A stretch of DNA of 64,000 bases from NCBI RefSeq assembly GCF_000372725.1, contig NW_005201183.1, positions 67,972 to 131,971 on the forward strand. Direction: 5' to 3'. A program made the position numbers and the translations under genes. Position 1 is the stretch's first letter. Every line of letters starts with the position of its first letter. This DNA is from Emiliania huxleyi CCMP1516. Lineage: Eukaryota. The notes beneath the pieces are model-generated. The model ran no database searches and had not been told where the DNA came from. It worked only from the letters and a program-made list of their open reading frames with translations. Shown piece after piece: positions 14,801 to 49,738 of the stretch.

Positions 14801-17800
14801 GACCGTCAGGACCTCGCGGAAACGCGACGAGCCGCCGCCGCCGCCGCCCGCCCCCCCCTCCGGGCCCGCCTCTGCCGCGGCCGACGCGCGCACTCCCGCC
14901 GGCACCGGCGCCGGGCCGCCTCCTCCGCGCGCCGTCGCCTCGCCCTCCTCGGTGTCGCGCTTGGCGTACCTAATCTCGGGCAATCTCGGGTAATCTCGGG
15001 TCATCTCGGGTCATCTCGCCCTCCTCCGTGTCGCGCTTGGCGTACCTGGCTCCGCACCCCTCCTCCGCGAGCAGCTCCAGCGGCGGCTCCTCCGACGCGG
15101 GCTCCAGCATCACCACGAGCGGGGCGCCTACCCGCAGACCCGCATCCGCGTGAGCCGACGCCTGCGCGCTCCTCGAGCCTCCTCGAGGCGGCGGCGAGGC
15201 GGCGGCCGTCGCGAGGCAGCGCTTCGTCCGCCGCGCCGCACGTCGCTGCGACGCCCTTTCGTATGCAATGCAGCACCTCGTCGCGGAGCGCCTCGTTGCC
15301 CGTGGGGTCCGTGTCGTCGACCTAATCTCGGGTAATCTCGGGTAATCTCGGGTAATCTCGCCTCGTTGCCCGTGGGGTCCGTGTCGTCGACCTCGAACCC
15401 GCCCGCCTCGCCCTCCCCCTCCTCCTCGCCCTCCCCCTCCCCCTCCTCCTCCCACCCCCGCCCGGCCAGCGCCGTGTCGGGCTCGCCGCCGCGCTTGACC
15501 GCTCCAGCGCCTGCGTCGGCCCCACCGCCGGCCGCCACGCCGCCGTAGCCGAGCAGCAGCCGCCAAGGCACGGGCGCGAAGAGGCCGGCGCGCTGCTGCG
15601 ACGCGAGGAAGGCCATCGTCCACAGTCCCTGCATCGAGAGCATCACCTATCGAGGTCTCGGGTGGTCAGCACCCTGTTGAATCGCCCACAGTCCCTGCAT
15701 CGAGAGCATCACCTATCGAGGTCTCGGGTGGTCAGCACCCCCCTGCTGACCTTAAGGGCGGAGGCCGGAAGGCCGTCGTCCACAGGCCCTGCACCGAGAG
15801 CGTCACACCTGCATGAGGCCGATCCAGTTGGCATCGTCCCCCGCGTGCTCCGGGTCGCTCCACCGCCACGTGGCGAGCGGCTTGCACGCGCGCACAAGCC
15901 ACTTGCAGTCGGCGACGTTGAGCGAGCCTTGGGCGGTCACGGGAGGGGGGGGGCCAGGGGGTGGCGTCGGCCCGGCTGCTGCGGGCAGCGCTGCCGGCGG
16001 GAGAGTGGGCGCGTGGGCGCGTGGGCGTGTGGGCGTGTGGCGTGTGTGGCGGGCGTGTGGCGGGTGTGGCGGGCGTGTGGGCGTGTGGCAGGTGTGGGGT
16101 GTGGCGGGTGTGGCGGGTGTGGGTGTGGAGAGGGTGGGCGTGTGGCAGGTGTGGGGTGTGGCGGGTGTGGCGGGCGTGTGGCGGGCGTGTGGCGGGTGTG
16201 GCGGGTGTGTGGCGGGTGTGGCGGGCGTGGTTCACCCAGCTGGAACATGAGGTAGTAGAGGGGGATCCAGTAGAGCCCGTAGTGGTGGAAGATCGAGTCG
16301 ACGTTCCGCGCGATGGCCTGCTCGCGCGCGCGCATCGCGCGTGTCGACGCGCCGTTCATCGTCCACCCGAGGACGACCACCAGCAGCAGCGAGGTCAGCA
16401 GGCTGAGGAACGCCCAAAAGTAGGCCGCCAAGACCCACGTGCCGCTCGCCAGCGCCGAGTCGTCCTCGTCCGACCAGTCGCCTGAGTAAGAGCTCCTTCA
16501 CCGCTAACCATGAATCCTTACTTCGGAGCCCTCCTCGTCCGACCAGTCGCCGGAGCGCGGCCAGCACTCGATCGGCAGCGTGTGGATCGGCCGCGGCACC
16601 GTGGCCGTCGCAAAGCAAAACTTTGACGCGGCGGTCGCGTTCGCGCCGCCGCTGCCGCCGCCGCTTCTGACGCCGCCGCTGCCGCAGCCCTCCGCGCCGA
16701 AGAGCCCGGCGGTCCACACCCGCTCCTCGCGAGTCGCGTGCACCTTGGGTTCGGGTACCGTGGGGTAGGGGAGGGTGGGTTCGGGTACTGTGGGGATGGG
16801 GGAGGGCGAGTCGCGTGCACCTTGGCGGCGGCGAGGGCGGCGCAGACGAAGCGCGACGTGTCAGACTGGTTGAGAGAACACGACGTCTCCATCAGCCTAC
16901 GCGCACGGCCGGCCCACTCTAGCGGCCTGCTCGACGAGCCGGCGCGGTGTGCCTCGCCCCTCGCGCCCGCGCACGGACAGGTTGGCGGGCGGGAGCTCCG
17001 CCTTCCACGTGTGCAGGGTTAGGGTCAGGGTTAGGGTTAGGGCTAGGGTTAGGGTTAGGGTCAGGGCTAGGGCTAGGGCTAGGGCTAGGGCTAGGGCTAG
17101 TGTTAGTGTTAGTGTTACGGTTAGTGTTAGTGTTAGGGTTAGTGTTAGTGTTAGGGTTAGGGTTAGTGTTGGGGCTAGGATTAGGGTTAGGGTTAGGGTT
17201 AGGGTTAGAGTTGCCTTCCACGTGTGCAGGCAAAAGCCGGCCTCGATGGCAAGCAGCTCGTCCCGAGCCTACAGACCCTCCTCCGGGCAAGGGTCACGCA
17301 AAGGCTCTGACGGAGGCCAGCTCTCGCCGGCGGCTGAAGTCGGCGCACCGGGTGGTGCCGCAGCCAAGGGACGGACGAGTCGAGCGGCTGCGACGCCATC
17401 CGCGTCCTGTCGAGCTCGTCTGCCGCGCCGGCAGGGTCGAGGAGGAGGCGGAAGCCATAGGAGAGGGCCGCGCTGAGGCCTGGAGAGGGAGGCGGCGAGA
17501 GACACTGCGGGAGGGGGAGGGGGGGGGGCGTTGGGGTGTCGCGAGACAGACGACAGCTTGTAGCGGCACCGTACGCGCAGACGCGGGAGCCGAAGGCGAG
17601 CCTGTTCACGGCTGCAGGTGTGAAGAGACGCCGTTCACAGCGTGAGACCGCAGACGCGGGAGCCGAAGGCGAGCCAGAGCGAGAAGGCGGCAGCTCCTCC
17701 CCAGACGAGAAGGTGGTAGAGGCGGCGGGCGCGCGCGTTGTCAGTGAAGGGGTCGCGCCTTGGGTTTGGGTGCCGTGGAGTAGGCAAGGGTGGGTTCGGG

Positions 17801-18753
17801 TACTGTGGGGGTAGGGGAGGGGTTGTCGGTGAAGGGGTCGCGCCTTGCGCAGGGGCGGGAGGGGCGGGGCGGGGTGGGAGAGGCGGGCAGGGCAGGGGAA
17901 GGAGGAGGGGAAGGAGGAGGGGAAGGAGCAGGGGCGGGGGGAGGGGCGGGGCGAGGTGCACATCAGCAGGAACACATCGACCGCCATCACCAGAGCCTGC
18001 GGGCAGAGGGGGCCAGGTGAGACCAGCCTCCACGGTACAGCCGTGCCCGCGCGTGGCGAGGAGGAGACCCATCCCTCGTGCGCCAGGAAGCCAAAGTGCA
18101 CCAGCAGCGGGTTGAGCGACGCCGCCACTGAGCCGCAAAAGTCGCGCCCGATGAGCGACGCCTACAGAGCAGCAGGAGGCGACGGCTGGGCGGAGCTGCC
18201 GTCGTCACCGGTGCGGTCTCCCTTCGGTCCCGGCGCAGCGGCACCGGCACCGCCAGCTCAGCCAGCGCCGTGCCAGCCACCGCGGCGGCGGCGACGCCCG
18301 TCGCTAGCGACCGCCTGCGGATCGGGCGGCGCGGGCGACGTGAGAGAGACAGCAGCGCTGCTCGGCCCTCTCCTCCCGCACCTCGGCTGCTCATCTGGCG
18401 GTGACTCTCGCTCCCACGCCCCTCCCGGGCCGCGAGATGTACACCCCCACAACTCTGCGCGCGCACCAGGCCAGCAGCTGGTTGGGGTAGCGGCGCCACT
18501 TGCGGACGTAGTAGCACCACAGGTTGAGCGCCACCGCGCCGAGGGAGGATGTGGCGCCCATCAGCCTCGAGATGGTGCTGGGCCTGCTGGTCAGCTGCAA
18601 GCCACCGACAACGAAGGCGGCAAAGCCCAAAGCAATTAGCGCCGCCTGGAGAACGCATACTCTGTGATCAACAACGGGTGTGAGAGACAGGTCGCGACGC
18701 GGGCACGTCGGCCTGCACGGCAGCGTCTCGTCGCACGCCGGCAATCCCGGCAT
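11874..18753 (-). CDS. GPCR-PIP kinase fusion (7TM + PIP5K domain), multi-exon, spans an N gap
   Basis: Predicted spliced 7TM motifs RYPNQLLAWRS, LAHEGWALVMAVD...RDPF, YHLLVW, ECW, GLYW, MQGLW; LR-x9-GV at 15250-15288; PIPK motifs GASGAFLF, VVKT, YDLKGS, LKDNDL, MDYSLLLG, GVIDVLQ. Start codon uncertain. Confidence 0.85.
12748..12783. repeat. Perfect 15-bp inverted repeat with 6-nt loop (intronic)
   Basis: tgcgtcctagaatgc-aaaaac-gcattctaggacgca; a further arm-like copy near 12824-12837. Confidence 0.85.
12873..12971. other. Assembly gap (others at 46091-46190 and 47786-48077)
   Basis: N runs. Confidence 1.
13525..13746 (-). other. GT-AG intron with 24-nt tandem repeats; starts with a diverged copy of the next exon
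   Basis: gtgagcgccgttctcgccc versus exon gtgagccgcaccttcgccc; removal gives RQT|VSRTF in frame. Confidence 0.7.
14390..15391 (-). other. Three introns (14390-14458, 14970-15045, 15322-15391), each an exon duplicate plus (cccgagatta)n
   Basis: Each begins with an 18-33-nt copy of the downstream exon and ends ...gagattAG; removal restores the frame. Confidence 0.85.
16744..16820 (-). mobile_element. Intron-forming cassette family B, copy 1
   Basis: 15-nt exon duplicate plus ccccacagtacccgaacccaccctcccctaccccacggtacccgaacccAAG. Confidence 0.75.
17002..17214 (-). repeat. Intron made of degenerate telomeric (CCCTAA)n flanked by an 18-nt direct repeat
   Basis: gccttccacgtgtgcagg at 17000-17017 and 17213-17230; GC donor, AAG acceptor. 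Confidence 0.85.
17602..17674 (-). mobile_element. Intron-forming cassette family A, copy 1
   Basis: 26-nt exon duplicate plus tgtgaacggcgtctcttcacacctgcagccgtgaaCAG. Confidence 0.8.
17759..17843 (-). mobile_element. Family B copy 2, inserted at an existing acceptor
   Basis: gttgtcRgtgaaggggtcgcgccttg duplicated at 17737-17762 and 17822-17847 around the B core. Confidence 0.75.
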
Positions 18754-18891
18754 CGCGCGCCCTGCCGCGGGGAAGAAAGCGAGCGGGCACGCCGCCTGAC
18801 TCCCAGGTCTTCATGGCTGGATCCGCGCCTTCGGCCTCAGAGGAGGGTTCGGGCACTAGACGCGCAGGGGTGGACTGGACGCCCCGAGGAC

Positions 18892-19000
<109 letters not shown>

Positions 19001-20001
19001 TCCACGCCGGAACCAGGTGTCAAATCTGCCGATGCGTGATCTGTGTGTGGGCTGCTCTATGAGTCGTCCAGGCATGGTCCGACGGGTAGGGAGTCTGTGC
19101 CCGGGCGGTGTCCGGTGTGGAGTCTCTCTCTGATCCCGCCTGTGATGTTGGGTGCGAGGTCGTGGAAGCTTCGATCCCAAGGGGGGGAGCTGATCTCACT
19201 GGTAACCAACTCTCAGGGGCAGCACTCGAGTAGGTGGGCGAACTTCAAGCGCGCTCATCTCGAACGACCAGGCGTCGCTACGCGCGGTCTTCCGCGGGGG
19301 GAGCTTCGTCGACGGGTGTTGGACTGCGGCGCAGCCAGTGCCGCGGCGATGCCTCCGGCTGGTGCGGCGAGTGGGTTGCTACTCGCTGCAATGGCGGCGA
19401 AAAACTCGTGACACGCCAAGAGCTTATGCTCTGTCGAGACGTGAGGCGCATGCGCCCAAGAGGGGAGGGCGCATGCGTAACGACGCTGCTAGAGATGCCT
19501 TTCGGGGCCCAGAGATGAAACTTCTGATGCCATGCGTGACCTAGTAGTGTCCCCAGCTATGGGCGTGTCCACGTTGGAGCCAGGTGTGGTGTGGACGCGA
19601 GAATAGCTCCGCCGTTCATGGAGGCAACTCCGATGCCGCGATGCGAGTCGTTCCGGTGGTGTGTGTCGTCGTGGTCATTGTCGTGGTTTCGTATCAGTGA
19701 GAGTTTCGCACCACCGGAGCCGCCTAAGCGACTCCGTTAAGTAAGATAAGATTAAGAACAGCAATGCACTCCGCCCATGCCGAGAAAAGAATTCTTAAGA
19801 TACAAGCCTCTCTCACAGCACACTGGCACGACAAGGGCGCAGACTGGCGCGGACTGGCACACACACAGGCTCACAGCCGAGAAAAGAAAGAAAACTGCAG
19901 TTGACTTCATTGCCTCTCTCTTGCGCCTCGCCGCGGGTCCTCGCCGCGGGTGAACGCGCCTCCGCCAACCGCTCCCGCGAGTGCAAACGCGCGTTGCTGT
20001 G

Positions 20002-22107
20002 ATGAGCCATCCCAGTCTCGCCATGGCCGGCGTCGCCCTGCTGGCCGCGGCCGTGGCTGCCGAGCGCGTCTGCGTTGACCCAGGCGGCGCGAGCTGCTCC
20101 GAGGCGTCCGACGCCGCCCTCTCTGACGCCCTCTCTGCGAACGAGGTGGACCACAACCGCGAGTCTGCCGAGGCGTGCCGGCACTTCTTCTGCGGCGATG
20201 CGGCGGCGGAGGTGGCTCTGCCCCAGATGAGCCGCCACCCGCTCGGCCACGGCCCGCTGGTCGACATCGTCGAGGGCGCCGGCGAGGAGGAGCACTCCAT
20301 CTACGTGACGGAGGCGCCGCTCTTCTCGGCGGCCGAGTGCGACGAGGTGGTGGCGTTGGCCGAGGCGGAGGGAGGCGGCCTTCCGAGCACAAAGTCGGGC
20401 AAGTACCGCATCGGCAAGGCCTGGGTGAGGGAGATGCCGGGTGTGCTGAGCTGGTTCAACGGCGCGCTCGAGACGAAGCTGTACCCGGCGCTGGCGCAGC
20501 TCTTCCCGGCGCACGTCTCTTCGACGGCGCAGCTGCGGGCGCACTCGGTCGCCATCCTCAAGTACAACGAGTCGCACCCCGCGACCGACGTCCACATCGA
20601 CGACGCGCTGCTCGCCTTTACGGTGGCGCTCTCGCCCTCCTCCTCGTTCGAGGGGGGAGGGACGTACTTCGAGAGCCTGCGGGCGGTGCTGCCGATGGGG
20701 CAGGGCATGGTCAGGTGTGAACAGCGTCTCTTCACACGTCCAGCTGTGAACAGGTGCTGCCGATGGAGCAGGGCATGGTCACTTTCCGGCCCGGCGCCGT
20801 GCGGCATGCGGGCCACGCTGTCTCCTCCGGCCTCCGGTACGTCCTCGGCGGCTTCATCGCGCTCGCAGACAGAGTCGAGCACGTGAGGCGGCTCAACGAG
20901 CGTGGCAACCGGCTGCTGCTCGCCCCGTCGCCGACTGCCCCCGAGCTCGAGCAGGCGGACCGGCTGTTTGCGCAGGGGCTGCGCCTCAACCCGCACTGCT
21001 CCCTCTGCCACGCCAACCGCGCCGACGCGCTGCTGCGCCTCGACCGGCCTGCAGAGGCGGAGGAGGAGCTCAAGGCGCAGACGGCGCTGCTGCCGCTCGA
21101 CTCGGACGCCCACTTCTCGCTCGGCGTCGCTCTCCGCGCGCAGGTCCATATCTCCCCGTATCTCCCCATATCTCCCCGTATCTCCCCGTATCTCCCCGTA
21201 TCTCCCCACCTTTCCCCACCTCTCCCCACCTCTCCCCACCTCTCCCCACCTCTCCCCACCTCTCCCCACCTCTCCCCACCTCTCGCTCGGCGCCGCCCCT
21301 CCGCAGGGCCGCACGGCCGAGGCGGTGCAGGCGTACCAGGCCGCGTTGCGCCTCGTGCCGCGCGACTTCGACGCGTGGGTGAACCTCGCCGCCGCACTCG
21401 CTGACCTGGAGCGGTTCGGCGAGGAGGCGGACGCCTACGAGCACGCGGCGGAGCTGCGGCCGTCCGAGGCGCTGCCGTGGCTCAACTTGGGCGAGGCGCG
21501 CCTCTCGACCGGCGACGAGGCCGCGGCGGAGCTCGCCTTCCGACGCGCCTCTGCGGCTGCACCGACCGACGCGCGGCCGTTCCTCTCCCTCGGCCGGCTG
21601 AGCGCTCGCCAGTCGAGACCTGCCGAGGCGATCGACCTCTTCTACCAGGGCGCGCTCGCAAACTCGGAGTACTTTGACGAGGCGAAGCAGGGCATCGCCA
21701 CCGCGCGCACGCAGCAAGGCCGCCTCTCCGAGGCCCTCGCAGACTTCGAGTCGGCGCAGCGGATGGCGCCGAACAGCGAGAAGGTGCGCGCGGCGGTGGA
21801 GGACGTGAGGCGGCAGGCGGCGGCACTCGCGCGCGTCGAGGCCGGCCTCGAGGACCGAGCAGCGGAGGTGTGCGGCACGCCTTGCCGCGACGTGGTCGAC
21901 ACGTCCGGCTACGCGGTGTGCGCCGTCTCGTGGGCGGACGGCTGCGGCGACGCGCCGCCGCCCGACGGCTTCTCCGCCGCCTCACGCGTGGCGGACCTGT
22001 GCGAGCGCACTTGCGCCTTCTACCTGCTGCGAAGCGGCGCCGTCGTGGACGAGGCGTCCGGAGAGGCGACGGAGACGGCGGCAGGAGAGGCGGCGGCCGC
22101 GCCGTGA
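20002..22107 (+). CDS. Secreted 2OG-Fe(II) oxygenase + TPR repeats + Cys-rich C-terminal domain; introns 20686-20753 and 21144-21306
   Basis: Signal-like MAGVALLAAAVAA; HxD (DVHID), FEGGGTYF, RHAG, GLRY; TPRs such as DSDAHFSLGVALRAQ|GRTAEAVQAYQAAL. Confidence 0.85.
20686..20753 (+). mobile_element. Family A copy 2
   Basis: gtgctgccgatggRgcagggcatggtca duplicated around ggtgtgaacagcgtctcttcacacgtccagctgtgaaCAG. Confidence 0.8.
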
Positions 22108-30925: not shown

Positions 30926-31569
30926 CGATGTGCAAAGCCAAACGGATCTCATGAGTCATCCGAGCTCCGTTTTTGAGCATTCTCGTTTTCTTATCGGGGG
31001 GGGGGGGGGGGGGCGGGTTTTTGGGGTGGGGTGGGAATTTCCGGGGGGGGAATGGGTGGCCCCCCAAATGGGAAGGGGGTGACTCCCCCTGGGGGGGGGG
31101 CGACCGCTTTTGAGGAAACCCTCCCCCCCCCCTCCCCTGTCCGGGGAATCGTGTCGGGCCACCCCCTTTTTTTGGAAAATTTTTATTTTTTGAGCTAAAC
31201 CTCCTTGTTAATTTAGGAACAAGGGAAGGCCCCCCCAACTTGACGCCAAAACCAAAATTGTAGGAACCGGACCGGATCCCGAACCCGCCACCGCACTTGG
31301 GGACCTTGGGGGGCGGTTTTTAACCTCACATCCAGGGCCGAGGAGCTGAGAAGCGCACCCAGCGGGCCGGATGATCGGTGTCGGGTTGCGGGCAAGAGAG
31401 CCCTAGCCCCGGGGGTGCGCGTTCGCAGGGAAAGGGCCTTAAAGTAAACACGGGTCCCCGAGTTTTTGGAGCACTTGGAGTGCAGTCAGCAGCCTCACAT
31501 CCAGGGCCGGGGAGCTGAGAAGCGCACCCCGCTGCACCGTTTATTTTCCCGAATACACAACAAACGAAT

Positions 31570-31770: not shown

Positions 31771-31808
<38 letters not shown>

Positions 31809-33974
31809 ACCACCGCCACGAGCTCCACCGCCGCCGCCGCTGCCGCCGCCGACGGCCTCGCATGGCTACGACATATGCGACCGTCAGAACCAGCGGTGCC
31901 AGGTAGAGGCGCGCGCTCGCCTCGAAGCCGCCGCCGCGTCGGTCCTCCGGCACTCGGCGGCAGAGGCGGCGGCGCGGGCGCGCTTCGAGACGGCAGCTGC
32001 GGCTGCAGCGGCGGGCGGTGCAGCGCTCGAGGCGGGCGCGGCACGCCGCTCTCCGCGGGGGAGCAGCCGGCGGCGCGCCGACGACACCGTCTTTGCCTCG
32101 GCCTCCGCCTCCTTCGCCCCGTGCGGGGCTTCGGGAATGCGCATCCCCGACCCGGCCCCGGACCTCCATCCCTTCGAGGCGGCGCGGCAGGACCTTGCCC
32201 CCTCGGCCGCCGCCTGCGCCGCGTGGGTGGCGGAGGCGCGGCGCGGCCGCATCGAGGCGGAGGCGGAGCGGCAGGAGGCGGAGGCGGCGGCGGCGGCGGC
32301 GAGGCTGGAGGCGGCCGAGGGGAGGCGGCGGGCGGAGGCGGCGGCCGAGGCGGTGGCGGAGGCGGCGGAGCAGGTGGCGGAGGCGCGTGCGGCGGCGGCA
32401 GAGGCGACGGCGAGGGCGGACGCCGCCGAGTCGCGCAGAGACGAGGGGTGTGAACGGCGTCTCTTCACACCCACTGCTGTGAACAGGCGGACGCCGCCGA
32501 GTCGCGCTCGCTTCGTGCCGAGGCGGCGCTGCAGTCCCTGGCGCTGCAGCCGGCCGCGCCGCAGTCGACCGCGCCGGAGCGTTCGGGCGGCGGCTCTCTC
32601 CTGCCCGCCGCGCTCGAGCGACGCGATGGGCCGGCCGACACTGGCGGGGGCGGGAGCGAGGGAGGCGGCGGCGGCGGCGGCGGCGGTGAGTCTGGAGCCC
32701 CCGGAGCGGGCCCCGGCGGCGCGGCGGCGGCAGCCTGCGGCGCAGTCGACGAGGCGGCGCTGCTCCGGCGGGCGGGCGCGGCGGAGGAGGCGGCAGAGGA
32801 GGCGTCGGCCGCCGCCGCCGCGGCTTCCGCGGAGGCGCGTTTGCCTCGCGCCGCTTGCCGGCGGCCCTTCCCGCCCTGCCCCGCATCCCCGCCCCTCCCG
32901 CCCTGCTCCCGCATCCCCGCCCTTCCCGCCCTGCTCCCGCATCCCCGCCCTTCCCACCCTGCTCCCGCCCTGCAGGTGCTCGCGCTGCGGAGGAGGCTCG
33001 AGGCGGCCAGCCTCGAGGCGGTGGAGGAAGCAGCACGCGCCGACCGAGCGACCGAGGCGCCTCATATCTCCCCATATCTCCCCATATCTCCCCATGTCTC
33101 CCGCCTAGCGCCGACCGAGCGACCGAGGCGCCTCTCGCCGGCTGCTGTCGCTCGTGGGCCGTGGGCCTCAGAAGCGAGCTCTTGCTTTAACTGCTAGGCG
33201 CTTGCTAACGCTAACCCTAACCCTAACCCTAACCCTAACCCTAACCCTAACCCTAACCCTAACCCTAACCCTAACCCTAACCCTAACCCTAACCCTAACC
33301 CTAACCCTAACCCTAACCCTAACCCTAACCCTAACCCTAACCCTAACCCTAAGCCTAACCCTAGGTCATCAGAAGCGAGCTCTCGCTGACACGTTTAGGC
33401 GCTTCGCCGGCTGCTCGCCACGGCGGGCTTGGCCGGCCGGTGGGGCGGGGAGGCGGGGGCGGGAGGCGGCGCGGAGCAGGACGGTCGCGGGCCCGCGTGG
33501 GTAGATGCCGCCGAGGCGGCCCTCCAGTGCTGGGCGGAGGGCGGGCGGGAGGCGGCGGCGGCGGCGGCCGGGTCGGGCCCTGCAGAAGGGGCGGCGGCAA
33601 AGCTTCCTCGCGCACCGGAGGAGGCGCCGCGCGCGGCGGAGGCGGCGGAGGCGCGGCTCCCAGCGCGAGGGACAGCCGGCACGCGCGAGGAGGCGGCAGC
33701 CCGGCGCGAGCTCGAGCGTCGCCGCGGTGCGGGCATCCGCCGCACTCCGCCCCTTCCCTTCCGACGTAGCACCCCTGCATCGCCAGGCGCGAACCGCGAC
33801 GCCGTCGAGCGGCGCGCAGCCACGGAAGCCGACCCGTCCGGCGGCGGGAGGCGCCGAGGAGCAGCCATGGCGGCGGACCATAACGATAGAGTCATGCGCG
33901 CAGTCAGCGCGTATGCTGTGCGGAGCCACCTGGCGCTGCCGACCGCCCCTGCGGCGGCGCTCTGCCGGAGATGA
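31570..33974 (+). CDS. Ala/Glu-rich coiled-coil protein of unknown function, multi-exon
   Basis: Frames join after removing introns 32416-32486, about 32836-32976 and 33057-33398. Confidence 0.55.
32416..32486 (+). mobile_element. Family A copy 3
   Basis: gcggacgccgccgagtcgcgc duplicated around ggtgtgaacggcgtctcttcacacccactgctgtgaaCAG. Confidence 0.8.
33205..33364 (+). repeat. Interstitial telomeric (CCCTAA)n inside an intron
   Basis: Nearly pure array flanked by the duplicate tcagaagcgagctctYgct. Confidence 0.95.
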
Positions 33975-35450: not shown

Positions 35451-35507
<57 letters not shown>

Positions 35508-35553
35508 CCCCCCCCCCCCCTCTCTGAGCCGGCCCGTCCTCGTCCTCGCGCCA

Positions 35554-38500
35554 TCACGCCATCCCCATGACGAGACCAATGCCCTGCAGCAAGTCCACCG
35601 CGCGTCGCTGCGTGGCCCCGTCGCCCGCTGCGAGCTCCCGCAGCCGCGGTCGGATCGCGTCGAAATGGTCGTAGCACTCGTGGCACCGGCGCGCGCGCGC
35701 CTCGCCGCTCAGATCAACGCCGACGCCGCCAGTCGCCGCCGACCTTGCCGCGGCCACCACCGACCCAAAGCTTGAGAGGACCAGCGAGAGCGCGTCGAGC
35801 GACGCCTCGGCGTGCCTACGTGTTGCGGGAGTGCGTCAGCAGGGGGGGCCGGCGCCGGGGTGGCGCGCGCGCGAGAGGCGCGTCACTCTTCGTGGGAGGA
35901 GGCGAGGGAGCGTCTAGGAGGTGTCTAGGAGGCGTCTAGGAGGCGTCTAGGAGGTGTCTAGGAGGTGTCTAGAAGGTGTCTAGGAAGTGTCTAGGAGGTG
36001 TCCAGGAAGTGTCTAGGGAAGCGTCACTCTTCGTGGGAGGAGGCGAGGGAGTGTCTAGGAGGTGTCTAGGAGGTGTCTAGGGAGGCGTCTAGGAGGTGTC
36101 TAGGAGGTGTCTAGAAGGTGTCTAGGAAGTGTCTAGGAGGTGTCCAGGAAGTGTCTAGGAAGCGTCACTCTTCGTGGGAGGAGGCGAGGAGCTGAGTGAG
36201 CGTGGGCAGCAGCAGCAGCGCCCCCTCCAGGTCTAGCGGGACGCGGCGCAACGTGCCCGTGCGCAACACGTCCACCGTGACGGACGCATCCCCCAGCCGC
36301 GCGAGGTGCTGCAGCATCGCCTGGCGGCAAGGGCCGCAGGAAGGGTCAGAGAAGGAGCCCAATCCCCCCCCCCCCCCGCCCAACCGAGGAGGCTGCAGCG
36401 TCGCCTTGAAGTCGCCCGCCGCGTGGTAGCAGCCGAGAGCCCTCAGCGCCGTCAGCCGCGCCGAGAGGCAAGAGACCTGCAGCGGCGACGGGGCGAGCAG
36501 CGCCGACAGCAGCGCCTCCTCGTCTCGGGGCACAGGGCCGCCCCCTGCCCGCGGCAGGAATGCGGACGGGTCGAGCCCGCGCGCCTCGGACGGGTCGAGC
36601 CCGCGCGCCTCCTCGAGCCCGCGCGCCTCCTCGAGCCCGCGCGCCTCGCCGACCCGCGCCCCGCCGCAGCCGCCCGCCGCCCCGCCCTCGCCACAGCCAG
36701 CCGCCGCGGGCGCGGGCGCCGGTGCGGCCGACGCCGCCTTGCGCGCGCGCGTCGCGGGGTATCGCGGCGGAGGGAGCTGCGCATTCCCCAGGAGGTTCTC
36801 GCTCGACGCGGCAGTCGCCTGTTCACAGCAGTACGTGTGGAGAGACGCTGCTCACACCACAGGAGCTTCCCGCTCGACGCGGCAGCGGAAGCGGGAGTGC
36901 GTCAGTAGGGGGGCCGGCGCCGGGGTGGCGCGCGCGCGAGAGGCGCGTCACTCTTCGTGGGAGGAGGCGAGGGAGTGTCTAGGAGGTGTCTAGGAGGTGT
37001 CTAGGAGGCGTCTAGGAAGTGTCTAGGAAGCCGCCGGCGCGAGGCCGCCGCAGAGAGAGTCTCCCATCGACGTGCCGACCGACTTGTGCCGTCCTCCGGC
37101 GGTGGCGAGCGGCTCCGACTGCTCCGCGCACGCGGCCCTGCAGCCGCCTCCCCCGCGGCCAGCCTCGCGAGCGCCGCCCCCCTCCGCCAGAGAGGCGGCG
37201 GGGACGTCGGCGGCGGCGAAGTCCGCCGGCCTCAAGCAAGCCGCTGTGGCGGCGGCGGCGGCGCCAGAGACAGCTGCAGCGCCGTGGCAGGCGGACCTTC
37301 CGCGCCGGACGGCGGCGATCTGGGCGCGGCAGCCGGCGATCTGCATACGCGCGCAGGCGGACACCGACAGCTCGTCGCCCTCGTCAAGGCCAGCAGTGTC
37401 GGGGCCGGCAGGGGCGGATGCGGCAGGGGCGGATGCGGCAGGGGCGGGAGCGGCGGCGGGAGGGGCGGCGGGAGCGGGGGCCGCCTTGCGAGCGGCGGGG
37501 ACAGGGCGGGAGGAGGCGGAGGCGGGGCGGGAGGAGGCGGAGGCGGGGCGGGAGGAGGCGGAGGCGAGGTGGTTGGCTCCGCCCTCGTGCCTCGCGCCCT
37601 CGCGCCTCGTCCCGCCCTCGAGTCGAGCCGCGCCGGCGGGCGGAGGGTGGCCGAGCCCGCGCAGCTCGTCGAGGCGGACTCCCCACACGGTGACCACGCA
37701 CTCGTGGAGGGCCGCAGCCAGCACCTCCCCCTCTCCTCCCTCCCGCTCCCCTCCTCCGCCCCCGCCGCCCCCGACGATGCAAAAGTCGGACAGCCGCGAC
37801 CAGCGTGTCTCGGAGTGGAGATGGCAGCGGGCGGGCTCCCACCCCCACCCGCGCAGCGACTCCTCGCCCGCCGAGAGCAGCGCGCTCCCGTCTGGCGTGA
37901 AGGCGACCCGCCGCGACCCTCCGCCGGGCTCGGGCAGCGCCGCCCCGACCGGCGAAAACGTCTCCAGGTCCCAGAGGCGGACGGTGCGGTCGGCGGCGGC
38001 GGTCGCCATAAGGAACTCGGTCGGGTGGATCGCGAGAGCGGACACGGCGCCCGCGTGCGTGCAGAGCTCCGTCAGCAGCTTGCCCGCGGTCAGGTCCCAC
38101 AGCCTGACCTCGCCTCCGTCGCAGCCAGAGACCACCCACCGGCCGTCGGGAGAGAAGAGGAGGTTGCGCACGGCGCCGGCGTGGCCCCGGTACGTCTGGA
38201 TGCACGCGCGCTGGCGCATGTCCCACACCTTGAGGTACGTGTCTGCCGAGCCCGACGCGAAGAACTCTCCGTACGGATGCCACTCGACCGTGATGGCGCT
38301 CGAGCGGTGGCCGGTGAGCGTGCGCGCCACGCGGCCGTGCTCGAGGTCCCACATCTTCAGAGTGCCGCCGGCCGAGCCGGCGACGACGGTCCGCTCCGAA
38401 CAGTCGAAGGAGACCGACTCGACGCTGCTGGTGTGGCCCGCGAGGGACAGGATCGCGTTGGGGCGGCCGACCGACCAGAGGTTCACCTTCTTGTCGTCGC

Positions 38501-38817: not shown

Positions 38818-38874
<57 letters not shown>

Positions 38875-41290: not shown

Positions 41291-41532
41291 TTCACAGATA
41301 GGTTGATAAGAAACAGGAGATGCTCACATCGCAGACAGTGAGGGTGTGAGAGGCGGACCTAAGGAAGGTCCTCTACATCTCTTTACCACCCCTGGCCGAG
41401 CTCCCGCTCGACTTCACAGATAGGTTGATAAGAAACAAGAAGCTCACATCGCACAGACAGTGAGGGTGTGAGAGGCGGACCTAAGGAAGGTTCTACATCT
41501 CTTTACGACCCCTGACCGAGCTCCCGCTCGAC
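41291..41532. repeat. Tandem duplication, 122 + 120 nt
   Basis: ttcacagataggttgataagaaaca...gagctcccgctcgac occurs twice. Confidence 0.9.
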
Positions 41533-41733: not shown

Positions 41734-43116
41734 ATGACGCCTTTCGTTCGTATGAAGGCCCCGGCGCACGCTCGTCTTCGGATTTTGTTGCTACATCACA
41801 CCAACGCATTAACCATCGTGGCCTTGGGCTTCTTCTCGTTCTGGTACGTTCGGTTGCGCAGAGGCATACAGGATACACCATGCAACGCGTTGCTCGCACA
41901 AAAGATCCTCCGCACAGCGCCGCGAGAGATCTCCGATGGAAGGATAACAAAACTGAACTTGATGCGCAACGCTATTGACGATGCTCTGCTGCTCGAGCTA
42001 GTAGCTGAGATGCCGAGCTCTCTTCTCGCTGGTCTGCAGGTCCTCGAGCTGAGCCACAACCGCATTGGAGACACAGGCCTTGCCGCGCTGCTTCATGAGC
42101 TCACAAGCACAAAAGCGCCATTGCTCCAGAAATTATGGCTCGACAGCAACGTGATTACACACGACGGCGCGGAACACATTCGGTCCTGGCTTGCATCAAA
42201 TTTCAATATCGCCACGCTTGGACTGAGTGACAACCACTTGTGCGACGCTGGGGCAGTTGCTATCTGTGCGGCGCTCCAGAGCAACAGCTCCCTTACGGAG
42301 CTTCGGCTGAAGGGCAATAGCATTAGTGATGCGGCAGCCGATGGACTTATGTCGGTGCTGCGCAACTCACAGAATACCTCGCTCCGCCGGTTATTCCTCG
42401 AACGCAACGCGTTTAGCGAGGTCGTTCAGGCGCAGCTTCGCGATGCTGTCCCAGTGCAATTGAGACTCGATATGCAGCAGCAATTCCCCATTGGCCCGGC
42501 TTTGTTAATATACGTTTGCAGCCCGGAGACGAACAAGTTGCCGCAAGCGCAGAATGAGGTGGCCCAGCTCATGAAGCTAGTGCGCAACACGCACAGCTCC
42601 CTAGCAGGCACCGCGAGAACGTTGCAGTTGCAGCTCAACAACACGCCGCCGCGTTGGTTCCTTTTCTGTGGCCACGCGGACGAAGACTGGGAGGGTCAAT
42701 TCACCCTAGGTTTTACCACGTCAGAGGGTCGTGTCTCCAGAGTTCCGCCGAGGGAGATCGTGACTATCCTCTCAAGCTGCCAGCGTCTGGAGTTGGTCTT
42801 CATCAATGGTTGTTCATCGCACGGGCTTGGCTTGGAGCTTCGGAAGGCAGGCGTGCCCGTGGTCGTTTGCTGGCAAACAGCGGTACTGGATCTAGCGGCG
42901 AGGGTCTTTTGCGTGAGCTTCTTCCAAAACCTTACCCAAAGCTCGACATCATCGGCCTTTGAAGCGCGCTGCCGTTGCGCGTTTCAGCATGCCAGGGTGG
43001 CCGTAGAGGAAGCGCTGGATCGACGTCTTGTTCTTCGTGACCCCGCCAGTGATAGTGAGGCTCCCGAAAAGCGAACACCACCTTATGCAGCGGGGATTCC
43101 AGTGCTGCTTGTCTAG
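41734..43116 (+). CDS. TM + RNI-like LRRs + CHAT (caspase-like) domain
   Basis: LxxLxLxxNxIxDxG repeats, then FLFCGHA (His), LVFINGCSS (Cys) and VVCWQTAVLD.AA..F. The 5' end may be incomplete. Confidence 0.8.
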   Translation: MTPFVRMKAPAHARLRILLLHHTNALTIVALGFFSFWYVRLRRGIQDTPCNALLAQKILRTAPREISDGRITKLNLMRNAIDDALLLELVAEMPSSLLAGLQVLELSHNRIGDTGLAALLHELTSTKAPLLQKLWLDSNVITHDGAEHIRSWLASNFNIATLGLSDNHLCDAGAVAICAALQSNSSLTELRLKGNSISDAAADGLMSVLRNSQNTSLRRLFLERNAFSEVVQAQLRDAVPVQLRLDMQQQFPIGPALLIYVCSPETNKLPQAQNEVAQLMKLVRNTHSSLAGTARTLQLQLNNTPPRWFLFCGHADEDWEGQFTLGFTTSEGRVSRVPPREIVTILSSCQRLELVFINGCSSHGLGLELRKAGVPVVVCWQTAVLDLAARVFCVSFFQNLTQSSTSSAFEARCRCAFQHARVAVEEALDRRLVLRDPASDSEAPEKRTPPYAAGIPVLLV

Positions 43117-43462
43117 CTAGGGGAGAAAAAGCGGAGATCCTAGCTCGCTGGGAGACGTGCGCAACCTAAAGTTGGGAATAGGGGAGAAGTGTCAGTGTGA
43201 GGGGAGGGCGTACGCCGGCGTTTTTGCCTTTGAAAACTGAACAGTTTTTTTGAGGAGTACGACGAAGGCGACGACGCTTTCGACGCGCTCTTCGACGGGG
43301 GCTCGGGGTACGGGTGGGATTCCTCTTCGGGGGGCGGCGCCTTCTTCTAGGCGCCCTTGACCCAACATAGAGGGCCAATATATAAATAAATTTCTTTATT
43401 TATTCCAACATAGATTGCCAGCTTTTGTTTGGGTTAGTTATTTCTTTTCCTCTTTCCTCGCG

Positions 43463-44848
43463 ATGTCCACCCCACAACGCCGCTCCACCCGCCTCGCCGC
43501 CGCCTCCGCCGCCGCCGCACGCTGCCCCCTCACCGACCTGCCCCTTGAGCTTCTCGCGCGCGTCATCTCTCGCTGCGACCCCGCCGACATCGCTCGCGTC
43601 GCGGCCGTCTCGCTGCTCTTCCACGCCTCGCTGGCGCTGGAGGGGATCCGCTTGTGGGCGCAAGAGCGCGGCCTCGAGCTGCCGGCGCAGCCAGAGGACG
43701 AGTGCGTCGTGCGGTGGCTGTGCTTTATGGCGTTGCTGTGCGAGGCCAACCCGCCGGCGAGGGTGGCGGCAGGCTATCGGAGCAGCCTCTTCATCGACGG
43801 CGAGGGGCGGCTCTCGTCGTGCGGCTCGGCGCCGTTTTACGCTCCAGAGCTACTCGGGCACGGCGAGGGCGTGATGCGGCTCAACACGCCGACACGCCTC
43901 CCTTCCCCGCTGGGCGGCGAGCGCGCCGTGAGCGTGGCGGCTGGACACGCGTGGAGTCTCGCCCTTGCCGCCGACGGAGCTGTCTGGAGCTGGGGCTGGG
44001 GAGGCTCTGGCCAGCTGGGCCACGGCGACGATCAGGCCCAGTGGCAGCCGAAGAAGATCGAAGCCTTGACGGGCCAGCGCGTCATCGCCGTGTCGGCTGG
44101 GTCCCTCCATAGCCTCGCCCTCGCCGCCGACGGCGCCGTCTGGAGCTGGGGAGCTGGTCTCTGCGGCAAGCTTGGCCACGGCGACGGGCAGAACCAGCTG
44201 CTGCCCAAGACGATCGAGGTGTTGGCGGGGCAGCGCGTCGTCGCTGTGTCGGTTGGTTACCAGCACAGCCTCGCCATCACCGCCGACGGAGCCGTCTGGA
44301 GCTGGGGCGATGGAGGCCGTGGCAAGCTGGGCCACGGCGACGGGCAGACCGAGCTGCTGCCCAAGAGAATCGTGGCGTTGGTAGGGCGGCGCGTCGTCGC
44401 TGTGTCGGCTGGAGGCAGCCACTGCATCGCCATCACCGCCGATGGCGCCGTCTGGAGCTGGGGCGTTGGAGGCTTTGGCGAGCTGGGCCACGGAGACCTG
44501 CAGGACCAGCTCCTGCCGAAGAAGATCGAGGCCTTCGCCGGGCGGCGCGTCGTCGCTGTGTCGGCTGGAGGCGCGCACAGCTTCGCCCTCACCACTGACG
44601 GGGCCCTCTGGAGCTGGGGCCATGGATACCGAGGCCAGCTGGGCCACGGCGACGAGCAGACCCAGCTGCTGCCGAAGAAGGTCGAGGCCTTTGCTGACCA
44701 GCGCGTCGTCGCCGTGTCGGCTGGACGCGAGCACAGCCTCGCCATCACCGCCGACGGCGCCGTCTTTACCTGGGGCAAGGGCGAAAGCGGCTGCCTAGGC
44801 CACGGAGAGGACCTGTCGAACCAGCTGCTGCCCAAGAAGATCAATTGA
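43463..44848 (+). CDS. F-box-like + RCC1-repeat protein, intronless
   Basis: LTDLPLELLARVIS...IARVAAVS; 52-aa repeats VSAG..HSLA.TADGAVWSWG.G..G.LGHGD. Confidence 0.9.
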   Translation: MSTPQRRSTRLAAASAAAARCPLTDLPLELLARVISRCDPADIARVAAVSLLFHASLALEGIRLWAQERGLELPAQPEDECVVRWLCFMALLCEANPPARVAAGYRSSLFIDGEGRLSSCGSAPFYAPELLGHGEGVMRLNTPTRLPSPLGGERAVSVAAGHAWSLALAADGAVWSWGWGGSGQLGHGDDQAQWQPKKIEALTGQRVIAVSAGSLHSLALAADGAVWSWGAGLCGKLGHGDGQNQLLPKTIEVLAGQRVVAVSVGYQHSLAITADGAVWSWGDGGRGKLGHGDGQTELLPKRIVALVGRRVVAVSAGGSHCIAITADGAVWSWGVGGFGELGHGDLQDQLLPKKIEAFAGRRVVAVSAGGAHSFALTTDGALWSWGHGYRGQLGHGDEQTQLLPKKVEAFADQRVVAVSAGREHSLAITADGAVFTWGKGESGCLGHGEDLSNQLLPKKIN

Positions 44849-45500
44849 TCTGGAACTGGATTGATGAGATGGGTGGGTCGCGCAGTGCCCGTTGGCGGGG
44901 CAAGCGGCGAGGGCGGAGGGGGTCGCCGGGGGGTTGGGATGGATGGGGATGGTCTTTTCGGCGAGCACTACGGTGCTCGCGGATTCGACTGTCCCCCCGA
45001 TCGTGCCCACCCTAGTGCCCACCTTTATGAGGACGACGGCGCCTTCTAAAGGTCCGTCGCCGGCTGTGCTCTTCAGGGTAGGCTCCCTCCGGTGAGGCCG
45101 ATTTTCTTAAACGGTCTTAAAAGAGGGACCCCCCGTGCCTGCAATCTCTTAAATGGCAATTTGAGCCCCCAAACCTCCTCATTTCTTAAAAGGTCTTAGG
45201 GTACCTCCCCCCGTGTTTGTTTGGGTTCTTTAGACTTTACTGAGTTGGTTGGTGAGAAGAATTTTACTACCTGCGTTCTCACAGACCACAGATAGCCCCC
45301 CCCCAAGCCCCCCACCCCCGCCTCTCTGGCTCTGTCTCACCACGCCACCCCTCACACACCTCTATCTACCATGACACGCCTCTCTGCGACACCCCTCTCT
45401 GCGGATTGCGCGCCTGCATTTGTCGGGCAGGAGCGGTGCGGAGAACCCGAGCCGAGAACCGAGAACCCTTTTCCGGCGTCCTCCTCAGCTCCACCTCTCC

Positions 45501-48500
45501 TCACCGTGAGAGCGCGACGTGCTGCACCGCCGCCTCCGCCGCGGGCCTGCCCACCGAGTCGGTCTCTCCGCCAGGCCCGTGAAAGGCGCAGATCGGCTGC
45601 TGCTGCTGCGAGTCAAACGGCCAAAACGTGAACCACTGCGCGCCCTCGCCGTCGGCGGCCGCCCCGGCGCCGTACGCGCCCCCCGGGAACTGCTCGCTCA
45701 TCGGCACGCCCTCCTCGACCGCGAGCGACATCCACACCTGCGGACGAGCAGAGAGGGGGGGGCGCGCACCACGTCTCGGAAGAGGGTGATGCGACAGGGT
45801 ACAGGAAGGAGCCGTGGCAAACCGCAACGCACCGTCCCGTCGGCGTCACGGCGGTAGTGCACCCCGCCGCCGCCGCCCTCGCCGCCGCCCTCGCCGCCGC
45901 GGAGGAGCGCCGTCATCCTGCGGCGCGCGGCCGCCCACGAGGCGCTCGCCTCGCCGCCCGCACTCCGCCGCACCTCGGTGACCAGCCTGCAGCCGCCGTC
46001 CGCCGCGTCGCCGCGCCCACAGACAAGGGCGAGTCGCGCGCGGCCGCCGGCCCCGTGGATGAGCGACGCGAGCACCTGCCGCGAGGGGGANNNNNNNNNN
46101 NNNNNNNNNNNNNNNNNNNNNNNNNNNNNNNNNNNNNNNNNNNNNNNNNNNNNNNNNNNNNNNNNNNNNNNNNNNNNNNNNNNNNNNNNNGGAGGGGGAA
46201 AAGGTTTGATTTTTTATTCAACAGGTTTGAAAAGAAATTTTAAAGGTGGGGGGGGGGGGGCGGACGACCAGCGCAAAGTCGGACCCGTCGCCTGCGCCGA
46301 CGACTCGCAATTCTGCGGCGGCGCTCGCGGACGCGGCGCCGTTGGCGTCGTCAGGCTCGTCCTCGCCCCGTGATGAGGCGAGGCCGACGGCAATCAGCTC
46401 GCTCGCCCGAAGCCCCGCCCAAGCGCCCGCCCACATGTCGGATCGCCAGCCGGCGAGGGAGGCCTCCTCGCCCGCCCCGCCGCCCGCCAAGCGCACCTCC
46501 CCACGCCCCACCTCCGCCCGCCCGCCGCCGTCTTGCGCGGCAGCCTCGGGCGCGAGCGAGGAGCGGAAGGCGCTGACCGCCGCGTCGAGCGCAGCGCGCG
46601 CCTTCTTGGAGAGCGCGTCCTCCTCCACCTGACGAGATATAGCCGAGGTGCGGCCGAGGTGCGGCCGAGGTGCCGCCGAGGTGCAGCCGAGGTGCCGCCG
46701 AGGTGCAGCCGAGGTGCCGCCGAGGTGCGGCCGAGGTGCAGCCGAGGTGCGGCCGAGGTGCGGCCGAGGTGCAGCCGAGGGGCAGCCGAGGTGCGGCCGA
46801 GGTGCGGCCAAGGTGCGGCCGAGGGGCAGCCGAGAGGCAGCCGAGAGGCAGCCGAGGTGCGGCCGAGGTGCAGCCGAGGTGCAGCCGAGGTGCAGCCGAG
46901 GTGCAGCCGAGGTGCAGCCGAGAGGCAGCCGAGAGGCAGCCGAGGTGCGGCCGAGGTGCAGCCGAGGTGCAGCCGAGGTGCAGCCGAGGTGCAGCCGAGG
47001 TGCAGCCGAGAGGCAGCCGAGAGGCAGCCGAGAGGCAGCCGAGGTGCGGCCGAGGTGCGGCCGAGGTGCAGCCGAGCGTCCCGCTCGACCTGGGCCATCC
47101 GAAGCACGTCCAGCGTCAGCTCGACGCCGCTCATCTCGCGCGCCTGGCACGCCGGGTGGACATGGCACATGTCAGAGGTCCGCACACGTCTCTTGCCTAG
47201 CGCCGCCCATATCTCCCCGTATCTCCCCGTATCTCCCCAGATCTCCCGCCTAGCGCCGCCCCTCTCACGCGCGCCTGCTCCTCGAAGCCGCCGTACACGT
47301 CGCCCACCAAGCGAGGCCCGTCCCCTTCCCATGTGGCTGGCGCTCCCGCCTCGCCTCCCTCCTCGCCCCCCTCCTCCTCGCCCTCTCCCTCCGGCGGCGG
47401 CAGAGCCCCCCCCTCCTCCTCTTCCGGCGGAACCATCAGCTTCTGCAGCCGGCTCAGCGCGAGCTCCCTGCGCCACTGCCGCCGCACCGCCGCGCGCGCC
47501 GCGGCCGTCGCCTCGCGGAGGAGCTTCATCATTAATCAAGTCAGTAAGTAATTAATAATTAATCAATTCGCCGTCGCCTCGCGGAGGAGCGCGTCGCGCA
47601 GCAGCCCCTCGCGCGGAGCCCCTCCGCCTCCGCCCGGCTCGCCGGCGGCCCTTTCGCTCAGGTTGTGGAGTCCGGATCGCAGCGCGGCGAGCGCAGAGGC
47701 GTCCGACGCGTTTGGGGGCAGGAGGAGGCGGCCCAGCGCGCGCGAGACCGCCGCGTCGAGCCACATGACTCATCGGCTGGCATACNNNNNNNNNNNNNNN
47801 NNNNNNNNNNNNNNNNNNNNNNNNNNNNNNNNNNNNNNNNNNNNNNNNNNNNNNNNNNNNNNNNNNNNNNNNNNNNNNNNNNNNNNNNNNNNNNNNNNNN
47901 NNNNNNNNNNNNNNNNNNNNNNNNNNNNNNNNNNNNNNNNNNNNNNNNNNNNNNNNNNNNNNNNNNNNNNNNNNNNNNNNNNNNNNNNNNNNNNNNNNNN
48001 NNNNNNNNNNNNNNNNNNNNNNNNNNNNNNNNNNNNNNNNNNNNNNNNNNNNNNNNNNNNNNNNNNNNNNNNNNNNNGTCGAGCAGCTTGCGCAACGCCT
48101 CCATCTTCGCTTCGAGGGAGGCTCGCGTCGCGCGCCACGCGCCCACGCCGCGCATCCACGCCGCGCGCACCTCGCTCGGCAGCTCGGGAGGGTACGAGAG
48201 CTGGCGCAGCAGCAGCGAGAGCACCTGAGGGAGCCACGTCCACGACGTGTCCGCGCCGCGCGCACGAGAGCCAGCGGCGGCGGCGAGCGGGCGGCGGGCG
48301 GCAAAGGCGAGCGGGCGGCAACGGGCGGGCGGGCGGCGGCGGCGGGCGGCGGCATGCGCGGCGGCGGGCGCGGCGGCGGGCACGGCGGCGGGCGGGGGGG
48401 CGGGCGGGGCGGGCGGGGCGGCGCCTCGTCGTCCTCCTGCGCCGAGTTGGTGTCGAGCGTGGGGAGGACTTCCGCGACGAGGGCGGAGACCTCGCGGTCG

Positions 48501-49738
48501 AGCTGCTCGACGTAGAGCGCCTTGGGTTCGGGTACCGTGGGGTAGGGGAGGGTGGGTTCGGGTACTGTGGGGGTGGGGGAGGGCGAGCTGCTGCTCGTAG
48601 AGCGCCTGCCTCCGCTCCGCCGCCTCCTCGCCCCCCTCCGCGAGCGCGGCGTATGCCGCCGCCGCCCTGCCGTGAGGGAGCAGCCTCCAGCGCGCGGCGA
48701 GCCACTCGAACGCCCGCTCCCCGCCCTCCGGCTCCGCGGCGGCGTCGAGGCGGAGGGCGGTGAAGTTGGCGACCAGCTGCGCCGTGAGCGGCTCGGTCAA
48801 ATCCGCCAGCGAGCTCAGCACGCCGCACTGCGCCTGCAGCCGCGCGGCGGCGCCGCTGCCGCCGCCGCCCTCGCCGAGCAGCAGCGCCACCCCCACTGCA
48901 ATGAGCGCCGCCTGGGCGACCCGCCCGGAGCGGGTCCCACCGCCACCCTCGGCCTCGTCCGGCGCGACGCCGGCCGCATTCGCGCCGCCGCCGCCGCCGC
49001 CGGCGGCGGCGGCGGCGCCGGAAGCGTGCTCCGTGGTCGTGTCTCCCTCGCCGGCGACCTGCCGGCGCAGCGACGGAGTCGGCGGCGGCGGAGGAGGCAG
49101 CACTGCGTTGTGCGGAAGGCCGACGAGGGCGTGGTAGATGGCGGCGGCGCCGATGCCGAGGAGCGGCGATAGGGCGGCCGTCACCCCGTCCAGGATCGCC
49201 ACCGCCGCGAGGAGAGCCCACGGCAGCCTGCGAGTCTGCAGCCGCACACTGACCAGCGTGACGGTCGACTCTGGCGACGACTGCGCCCAGAGCTGGAGCA
49301 GGGCGAAGAGCGTGGCGGGCGCGAGGGAGGAGGCGTAGCGGCGCTGCACGGGCGGCACGGTCGCGGCGGCCAGCGCGGCGGCGCCGCCAGTGCACAGCAG
49401 CAAAACAACCAGCAGCCGGCGCGAGCCGAGAGCGGGCTCGAGCCGCTCGCACGCGGCGAGCCAGAGCCAGAGGTGGCAGCCGAGGCCCGCGAGCGAGCGG
49501 TAGAGGAGCAGCGAGGCGAGCAGCCGTGCGGGCGACGCTGCCAAGGCTGATGGCTCCAGCGTCGCAGCGCTCGCGGGAGGAAGGGCGCCGAGCGCGGCCG
49601 CCGCAGCCGCAAAAGAGTAGCATAGCAGACCAACTGCGGTGACGGGAGGAAGAGAGGCGCGGCGGGCCGAGTCGACGATGAGGAGCCGAGCGAGCTGCAG
49701 GAGCAGCGCCGCGCCGGCTGCTTCTCGGAGCGCAAGCA
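45501..49738 (-). CDS. Derlin (Der1)-like N-terminus with a long downstream multi-exon region (one or two genes, across two gaps)
   Basis: PPVT, RLE, QLWAQSSPE.TV...V...RRLPW...LLGI....IY match the Der1 pattern; downstream exons are unassigned. Confidence 0.55.
46629..47089 (-). repeat. Intron of about 40 x 11-nt repeats (gccgaggtgcR on the + strand)
   Basis: GT...AG; starts gtcgagcgggacgctc versus next exon gtggaggaggacgcgctc. Confidence 0.85.
48521..48605 (-). mobile_element. Family B copy 3
   Basis: 22-nt exon duplicate (3 mismatches) plus a B core nearly identical to that at 16744-16805. Confidence 0.8.

Follow-up and report, generated by a model that had tools for sequence, protein, structure and literature searches.

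How new introns come into being has long been an open question, and a 64,000-nucleotide (nt) stretch of the Emiliania huxleyi CCMP1516 genome (contig NW_005201183.1, positions 67,972 to 131,971, forward strand), here called the window, raises it in the form of a small repeat. A first-pass annotation of this stretch described three copies of a cassette of about 60 nt, family B, which it took to be an element ending in AAG, inserted in sense orientation between short duplications and sharing its route of insertion with a sequence-unrelated family A. What are these copies, are they removed from the RNA, and how may they have reached their genes? We show here that family B is a tandem array framed by a duplication with AG/GY (splice point at the slash) inside it, that the arrays are biased towards the sense orientation, and that copy 1 is skipped in RNA.

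Three copies of family B in the window

Family B is present in the window as three minus-strand copies (16744-16806, 17759-17821 and 48521-48583), at the places first noted, each consisting of two 30-nt units; copies 1 and 3 were also picked up in the tandem-repeat list. All five exact 12-mer matches in the window lie within these copies (0.11 expected by chance), and the sole extra match of the window search is an unrelated 12-mer with one mismatch at 57623. Copies 1 and 3 stand in different genes yet are identical at 62/63 positions, including the whole of the final 52 nt. The string quoted in the first-pass annotation is exact for these two and does not hold for copy 2, which agrees with copies 1 and 3 at 56/63 and 57/63 positions and has 5 mismatches in the final 52 nt. 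The copies are flanked by duplications of 20, 26 and 24 nt, and the terminal AG occurs in both copies of the duplication at 3/3 sites. It can therefore not be ascribed to the element and belongs to the duplication. The features of the three sites are as follows:

16806..16825, minus strand: copy 1 duplication, upstream copy, 20 nt, perfect; contains the AG/GT donor
16729..16748, minus strand: copy 1 duplication, downstream copy, 20 nt, perfect; contains the AG/GT acceptor
16744..16820, minus strand: copy 1 intron, GT..AG, 77 nt, made of the duplicated exon piece, the dimer of the 30-nt unit and AG
17822..17847, minus strand: copy 2 duplication, upstream copy, 26 nt, one mismatch
17737..17762, minus strand: copy 2 duplication, downstream copy; contains the acceptor AG 17760-17759
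17759..17843, minus strand: copy 2 cassette, GC..AG, 85 nt, inserted behind an older acceptor
17844..17845, minus strand: older acceptor AG at copy 2, probably bypassed in the RNA contig of run X12
17759..17961, minus strand: putative composite intron around copy 2, GT..AG, 203 nt, from sequence and X12 depth
48521..48605, minus strand: predicted intron of copy 3, GC..AG, 85 nt; frame kept on exact removal
48584..48607, minus strand: copy 3 duplication, upstream copy, 24 nt, three adjacent mismatches
48499..48522, minus strand: copy 3 duplication, downstream copy, 24 nt

As had been proposed, copy 2 duplicated an existing acceptor, and the older AG at 17844-17845 is retained upstream. A search with Rfam gave no match within the window. 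On the G-rich strand the unit at 48523-48552 has five G-runs per unit and a G4Hunter-style score of 1.83. Compared with the telomere repeat, the unit scores 64 against 40 in shuffled sequences (0.2%), a weak signal given that shuffling breaks the G-runs.

Removal from RNA

A 4118-nt RNA contig of run X11 omits exactly 77 nt at copy 1, from the GT at 16820 to the AG at 16744, and the same contig also omits an unrelated 69-nt cassette at 16482-16550. The other RNA run at copy 1, X13, gave unspliced pieces only, at a depth of 2-3. In DNA, copy 1 is present in contigs of runs X1 and X3 that cover both joints, and copy 2 is present in run X8, where the downstream joint is covered. An empty (joined) site was not found in X1 or X3 at copy 1 or in X8 at copy 2, all three being genomic-type runs.

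At copy 2 the question had been whether the acceptor at 17844 or the one at 17759 is used. The RNA contig of run X12 tracks the exon to 17757 and then leaves the window. Its depth of 53.8 in the bin 17963-18018 equals 86 x 35/56, which matches an upstream exon of 35 nt. The contig thus fits use of the downstream AG of copy 2 (17760-17759), the joint across copy 2 itself lying among the repeats at 17847-17960, whose rows are left out of the alignment. The older acceptor is probably bypassed; splicing to it would leave 85 nt more in the RNA and put the frame out of register. The family A copy at 17576 is likewise absent from the X12 contig. For copy 3 the unspliced frames are open too, so that open frames do not discriminate. 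Run X15 matches repeat units only (4 records), and the summed contig depth over the B unit is about 1000-fold that of the flank, a figure that is not a copy number. We consider the family B copies as confirmed and the insertions as likely spliced out.

A variable array with host-derived splice sites

One scan of marine metagenomes found family B in 102 stretches; together with the three window copies these gave 110 arrays, 86 with both flanks, of which 82 are unique after four duplicates were dropped. The counts for phase, AGG, duplication length, microhomology, frame and orientation given below come from an earlier set of 76 arrays, 35 of them with a scored duplication, in which de-duplication mis-merged or swapped L046/L048, L015/L074, L011/L100 and others. 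L049 and L092 were dropped from the duplication-scored set, their duplication including the array. The pattern was not found in viral contigs. The arrays consist of 1 to 5.4 copies of the 30-nt unit with a mode of 2, and the dimer of about 60 nt is one state of this variable array. The fixed element with an AAG end of its own is not borne out, given this range and the fact that the AG is host-derived in 21/26 clean cases. Further copies with flanking duplications were found: a duplication score of at least 9 is reached by 39/82 unique arrays and by 0.8% of mismatched flank pairs. The duplication measures 9-30 nt among the 35 scored sites and about 1-30 nt overall. Host genes of the arrays include AcnX, FMO-like, sulfatase, EF-hand and ABC1 genes, and a second array is present at 7/99 loci. 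In two pairs of unrelated genes (L018/L067 and L058/L069) we observed 10-14 shared non-array bases beside the array, which may be sub-family ends or further carried flanks.

Exact removal of a GY-AG unit is possible at 26/37 sites with the C-rich strand as sense and at 7/37 in antisense (p=1.7e-5; about 18% by chance), and for metagenome arrays only the values are 23/34 and 7/34. Within the duplication the splice point is set in by 0-19 nt. In the other 5/26 cases the AG occurs at the 3' joint alone, in four of them directly after the unit end. The clean introns measure 61-140 nt, and 17/26 have a GC donor; GC donors make up 56-65% in E. huxleyi (PMC4028052). Arrays with duplications of 1-8 nt also form plausible introns. 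At L045, L054 and L020 there is hardly any duplication or none, and the GT donor apparently comes from the unit's own bases. When orientation was called from the flanks at 73 loci, the C-rich strand was sense at 40, antisense at 7 and uncalled at 26, so that the sense orientation first described holds for most arrays. The coding frame is kept on exact removal at 16 of the 21 confident sites among 26 (p=7e-5). It is not kept at L019, L077, L093, L102 and copy 2, the left flank of copy 2 being intron. Part of the training sequence of the codon model was the exon that lies upstream of copy 3, which makes the frame result for copy 3 partly circular. Protein continuity was seen at L017, where an AcnX profile at 26-103 resumes at 107-186 across the cassette; this is the only one of 15 locus pairs (19 available) with Pfam matches on both sides, and 11 further locus pieces have matches on one side at most.

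One site, two fillers

On strain polymorphism, which had been proposed as a check, runs X1, X3 and X8 showed no empty form (X2 gave no coverage), and other contigs contain another filler at the site of copy 3. Two proteins read from unspliced contigs, P0002 (Joint Genome Institute, JGI) and P0003 (European Nucleotide Archive, ENA), are identical to the window protein at 378/378 amino acids up to copy 3. Both repeat the duplicated exon piece of copy 3 and then read through a 10-mer array, not B. The reading of P0003 picks up again in the downstream exon, so that an intron of 119 nt is implied at this site. The difference concerns one site and is seen through protein translations only. The 10-mer could be either a parallel insertion or a replaced filler, and family B need therefore not have founded every intron that it occupies. 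About 40 nt into the downstream exon (match 48480-48522) P0003 leaves the window sequence and enters a simple repeat, possibly a further insert or a chimeric contig.

How the arrays may spread

Several observations bear on the route. The insert L035, in an ABC1 kinase gene, contains, immediately behind the unit, 18 nt identical to the duplicated exon of L030, followed by sequence that again resembles the start of the L030 intron, in the order array-flank-array. Judged from this order of pieces, the L035 insert was likely copied from an intron such as that of L030. All three window copies carry one dimer variant that is found in 2/103 metagenome arrays; together with the second arrays at some loci this suggests copying from neighbours. 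Moreover, several unrelated fillers in the window are framed by duplications in this way, with 27 hits against 0-2 in shuffled sequences. The claim that sequence-unrelated cassettes have this architecture in common is thereby upheld, and one architecture for unrelated fillers points to a sequence-independent route.

The reading we favour, with our own judgement on it evenly balanced, is a route that does not depend on sequence: existing intron arrays would serve as templates for copies made into staggered breaks, and splicing would filter the outcome. A staggered break or a pair of nicks would give rise to a duplication of 1-30 nt. The repair polymerase would prime with little microhomology on the array of another, often nearby, intron and would copy one to five units, occasionally running into the flank of the donor. 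In exons the insert would persist mainly if the C-rich strand is sense, if an AG/GY either is part of the duplication or is formed at the joint, and if the intron reaches about 60 nt. Splicing could then remove the insert exactly, since the duplication holds both splice sites. Existing introns would be hit likewise, which would yield doubled acceptors, composite introns and replaced fillers. A family-specific transposase would not be required. Such copying would account for the variable duplications, both orientations, the unrelated fillers, the carried flank and the composite introns.

Several observations speak against templated break repair. Array starts are phased, 42/53 falling in 9/30 phases, as are the ends (41/53 in 7/30), and unit counts cluster at whole numbers; this argues for a defined template rather than random copying during repair. 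An AGG lies within 20 nt downstream of 61/76 arrays and of 25/70 random flanks. Few copies away from splice sites are hard to explain by random breaks and selection. No significant duplication was scored at 43/82 arrays, some of which have one of 1-8 nt, and some metagenome loci look like chimeric assemblies, with five pairs sharing one flank. Microhomology at the joints shows a weak excess, which would favour such copying, but it is slight (1.16 against 0.43 nt with 31/35 joints placed, p=0.012; 0.71 against 0.39 nt with 24/35 placed, p=0.047). The dimer variant shared in the window could reflect a strain-wide expansion, not local copying. The organism label of the RNA runs differs from that of the DNA runs, and the allele of the RNA strain may possibly be empty. 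Finally, with no empty site seen, no insertion event was observed.

The phased ends and whole-number units, together with the variable duplication, are what one would expect if the reverse transcriptase (RT) of a retroelement acted in trans on introns after their excision, copying their RNA, in linear or circular form, into a staggered nick and re-using the template to give tandem units. The piece carried by L035 lies wholly inside the predicted intron of L030 and crosses its 3'-to-5' joint, circular introns are known from yeast and human (PMC10996645), Penelope-like elements yield head-to-tail insertions (PMC8557442), and a broken LINE-like element is present in the window. We nevertheless hold this route to be unlikely: the arrays have no poly(A) tail and no graded 5' truncation, both of their ends being phased, one clear carried host piece was seen among about 100 arrays, and a template switch between two DNA duplications gives the same order of pieces. 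Assembly artefacts or chance repeats have next to no weight in our judgement. Some metagenome loci do look chimeric at the array, but the contigs of X1 and X3 span both joints of copy 1, that of X8 spans the downstream joint of copy 2, and the exact RNA skip as well as the duplication and removal statistics contradict an artefact.

A separate question is that of the founder. The intron and its duplication might have arisen once, with the interior later overwritten by conversion from other introns, and family B would then be a secondary invader. The 10-mer filler with the same duplication at the site of copy 3 agrees with this, as do copy 2 at its older acceptor, the composite inserts L004 and L024 and the lack of an empty site in X1, X3 and X8. 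The other filler is known from that single site and from translations, however, and in Daphnia one and the same site has often gained introns in parallel (43/90; PMC4202315). Family B also looks like the founder where its own bases form the donor or acceptor (the AGs standing only at the 3' joint; L045), and on the whole we doubt that overwriting explains the arrays. Quite improbable in our view is a tiny non-autonomous rolling-circle element served by a Replitron-type HUH transposase that nicks once per unit. Phased ends and whole-number units would fit, two haptophytes are reported to have Replitron proteins, and Replitron-1 of Chlamydomonas resembles family B in its variable-length duplications, its direct terminal repeats and the carriage of parental flank (PMC10288648), of which L035 from L030 is our one case. 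Replitron-1 differs in inserting 3' of an RG target and in measuring 0.9-3.6 kb, whereas B arrays of 30-160 nt have, judged by eye, no target motif and no common dinucleotide at either end of the duplication; the portion of that account available to us does not report Replitron-1 as forming introns. Moreover, copies 1 and 2 do not fold beyond shuffled sequences (copy 3 has a z of -1.88), the folds show no end-to-end pairing, and recognisable ends would have to be present in every one of the many unrelated fillers.

Relation to known intron-forming sequences

Intron-forming repeats are already known in E. huxleyi. Introners are listed for this species (PMC9860276, PMC12130899), the matches listed comprising 653 copies in 5 families with lengths of 37 and 70 and the target-site duplication (TSD) given as '?' in 4 and 'N' in 1; a later list has 3 families whose superfamily is given as unknown. 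Like Introners as described there, family B is a multi-copy insert that forms introns and takes its splice sites from the duplication. It occurs as many similar copies at unrelated genic positions (102 stretches, 82 unique arrays), and the skip of copy 1 and the frame tests indicate splicing from the mRNA, with the reservation made above on the allele of the RNA strain. In contrast to Introners, whose duplications measure 3-9 bp, family B has variable ones of 1-30 nt with a splice point floating inside, and it has a varying number of units in tandem and no inverted repeats. The similarity of Introners from end to end and in length is not seen in introns of 61-140 nt with 1-5.4 units and host-derived ends. 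The B motif was not found in the 14 supplement files of the 2025 Introner paper (PMC12130899), and B could not be assigned to any listed family. Nor does family B fit miniature inverted-repeat (MITE) or other terminal inverted repeat (TIR) elements: terminal inverted repeats were not found in the B array ends or folds, and the duplication is not of fixed short length (9-30 nt among 35 sites, and shorter ones too).

The introns of Daphnia pulex ascribed to repair of staggered breaks come close: sequence of the adjacent exon recurs as a direct repeat at the intron's far end, young introns are hit more than once, and different introns occur at one site (PMC4202315, PMC3443670). Their repeats measure 4-12 bp, whereas those of B reach 30 nt and enclose filler from high-copy families copied between genes. 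Tandem AGGT duplication also supplies donor and acceptor from a duplicated AG/GY with exact removal (PMC3443670); unlike it, family B has a foreign repeat array between the copies, which supplies length. Our literature search, which did not extend to the E. huxleyi genome paper, found no account of a long floating duplication, tandem filler, carried flanks or same-site filler exchange in a haptophyte. Family B is likely a spliced variant of Introner-like and Daphnia break-repair-like introns.

Other cassettes and the genomic setting

The remaining features of the window are the following:

17576-17675, 20685-20781, 32415-32507, 36789-36885: cassette with four copies (family A), insert and duplication together 68-73 nt each
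14360-14460, 14952-15047, 15289-15393: 10-mer cassettes in one gene, three nearly identical copies within 1 kb, duplications of 20-35 nt
16463-16555: cassette of a third kind, present once, of which RNA skips 69 nt; AG not present before the donor
17000-17230, 33168-33387: degenerate telomere-type arrays, duplications of 18-19 nt
33037-33134, 47195-47261, 47504-47590, 36017-36189, 31324-31529: other duplication-framed cassettes (10-mer, AT-rich, 11-mer, unique)
12982..13524, minus strand: PIP5K-domain exon (PF01504, E 5.4e-24), likely of the gene hosting copies 1 and 2
48606..49739, minus strand: exon upstream of copy 3, with a weak rhomboid-like match below cut-off (PF01694, E 0.0066)

For this comparison family A was taken as the cassette at 17576, 20685, 32415 and 36789. 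The 10-mer cassettes at 14360-15393 have a splice-compatible site on the minus strand, the telomere-type array at 17000-17230 has AG/GC in its duplication and that at 33168-33387 is without a clean site. Many of the other duplication-framed cassettes give removable units of 53-77 nt. Chimeras of A and B were considered and rejected, as the sides of the X8 joints measure only 23-24 nt and A lies within 25 nt of B at 0/73 loci. Tandem duplications of non-repeat sequence (120, 66 and 48 nt) occur at 41291-41532, 15607-15806 and 9580-9738.

The window is eukaryotic in character, with a GC content of about 55-75%, and 10-11-nt intronic repeats, a trait of the E. huxleyi genome, are plentiful in it. 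Metagenome contigs contain the B unit, and the gene that surrounds copy 1 is present in marine metagenome runs. Copies 1 and 2 likely lie in one multi-exon gene that ends in a PIP5K domain, as far as the linking of exons from sequence allows. The minus-strand gene at 11874-18880 reads as a membrane receptor-PIP5K fusion, with a Pfam match in the PIP5K part only, and the protein P0005 begins after copy 1. A protein search found no longer protein for the gene of copy 3. The broken LINE-like element at 2592-8759 has endonuclease/exonuclease/phosphatase (E 3.3e-7) and zf-RVT (E 6e-6) matches; neither of the two frames scanned gave an RT family match, and the remnant does not contain a B unit.

Significance for intron gain in E. 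huxleyi

About 72% of Introner families are unclassifiable (PMC12130899). Each B insertion keeps a long footprint, made of both splice sites, the duplication, the variant of the donor and sometimes the donor's flank, and the competing mechanisms can thereby be put to a direct test in an alga that grows in culture. Many strains of E. huxleyi have been sequenced. The allele with a different filler at the same site, together with this testable footprint, is the main draw of the finding. Exon-derived AG/GC donors could help to explain the excess of GC donors in this species, because donors taken from GC-rich exons would often be AG/GC. More tentatively, and leaning somewhat against it ourselves, we consider a genome-wide intron factory that needs no transposase, in which one host process would duplicate 10-30 nt of exon around an AG/GY, paste in the repeats of a neighbouring intron and overwrite the interior of existing introns. 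If such a factory is at work, strains would differ in intron content at one and the same site, while the splice sites would stay fixed.

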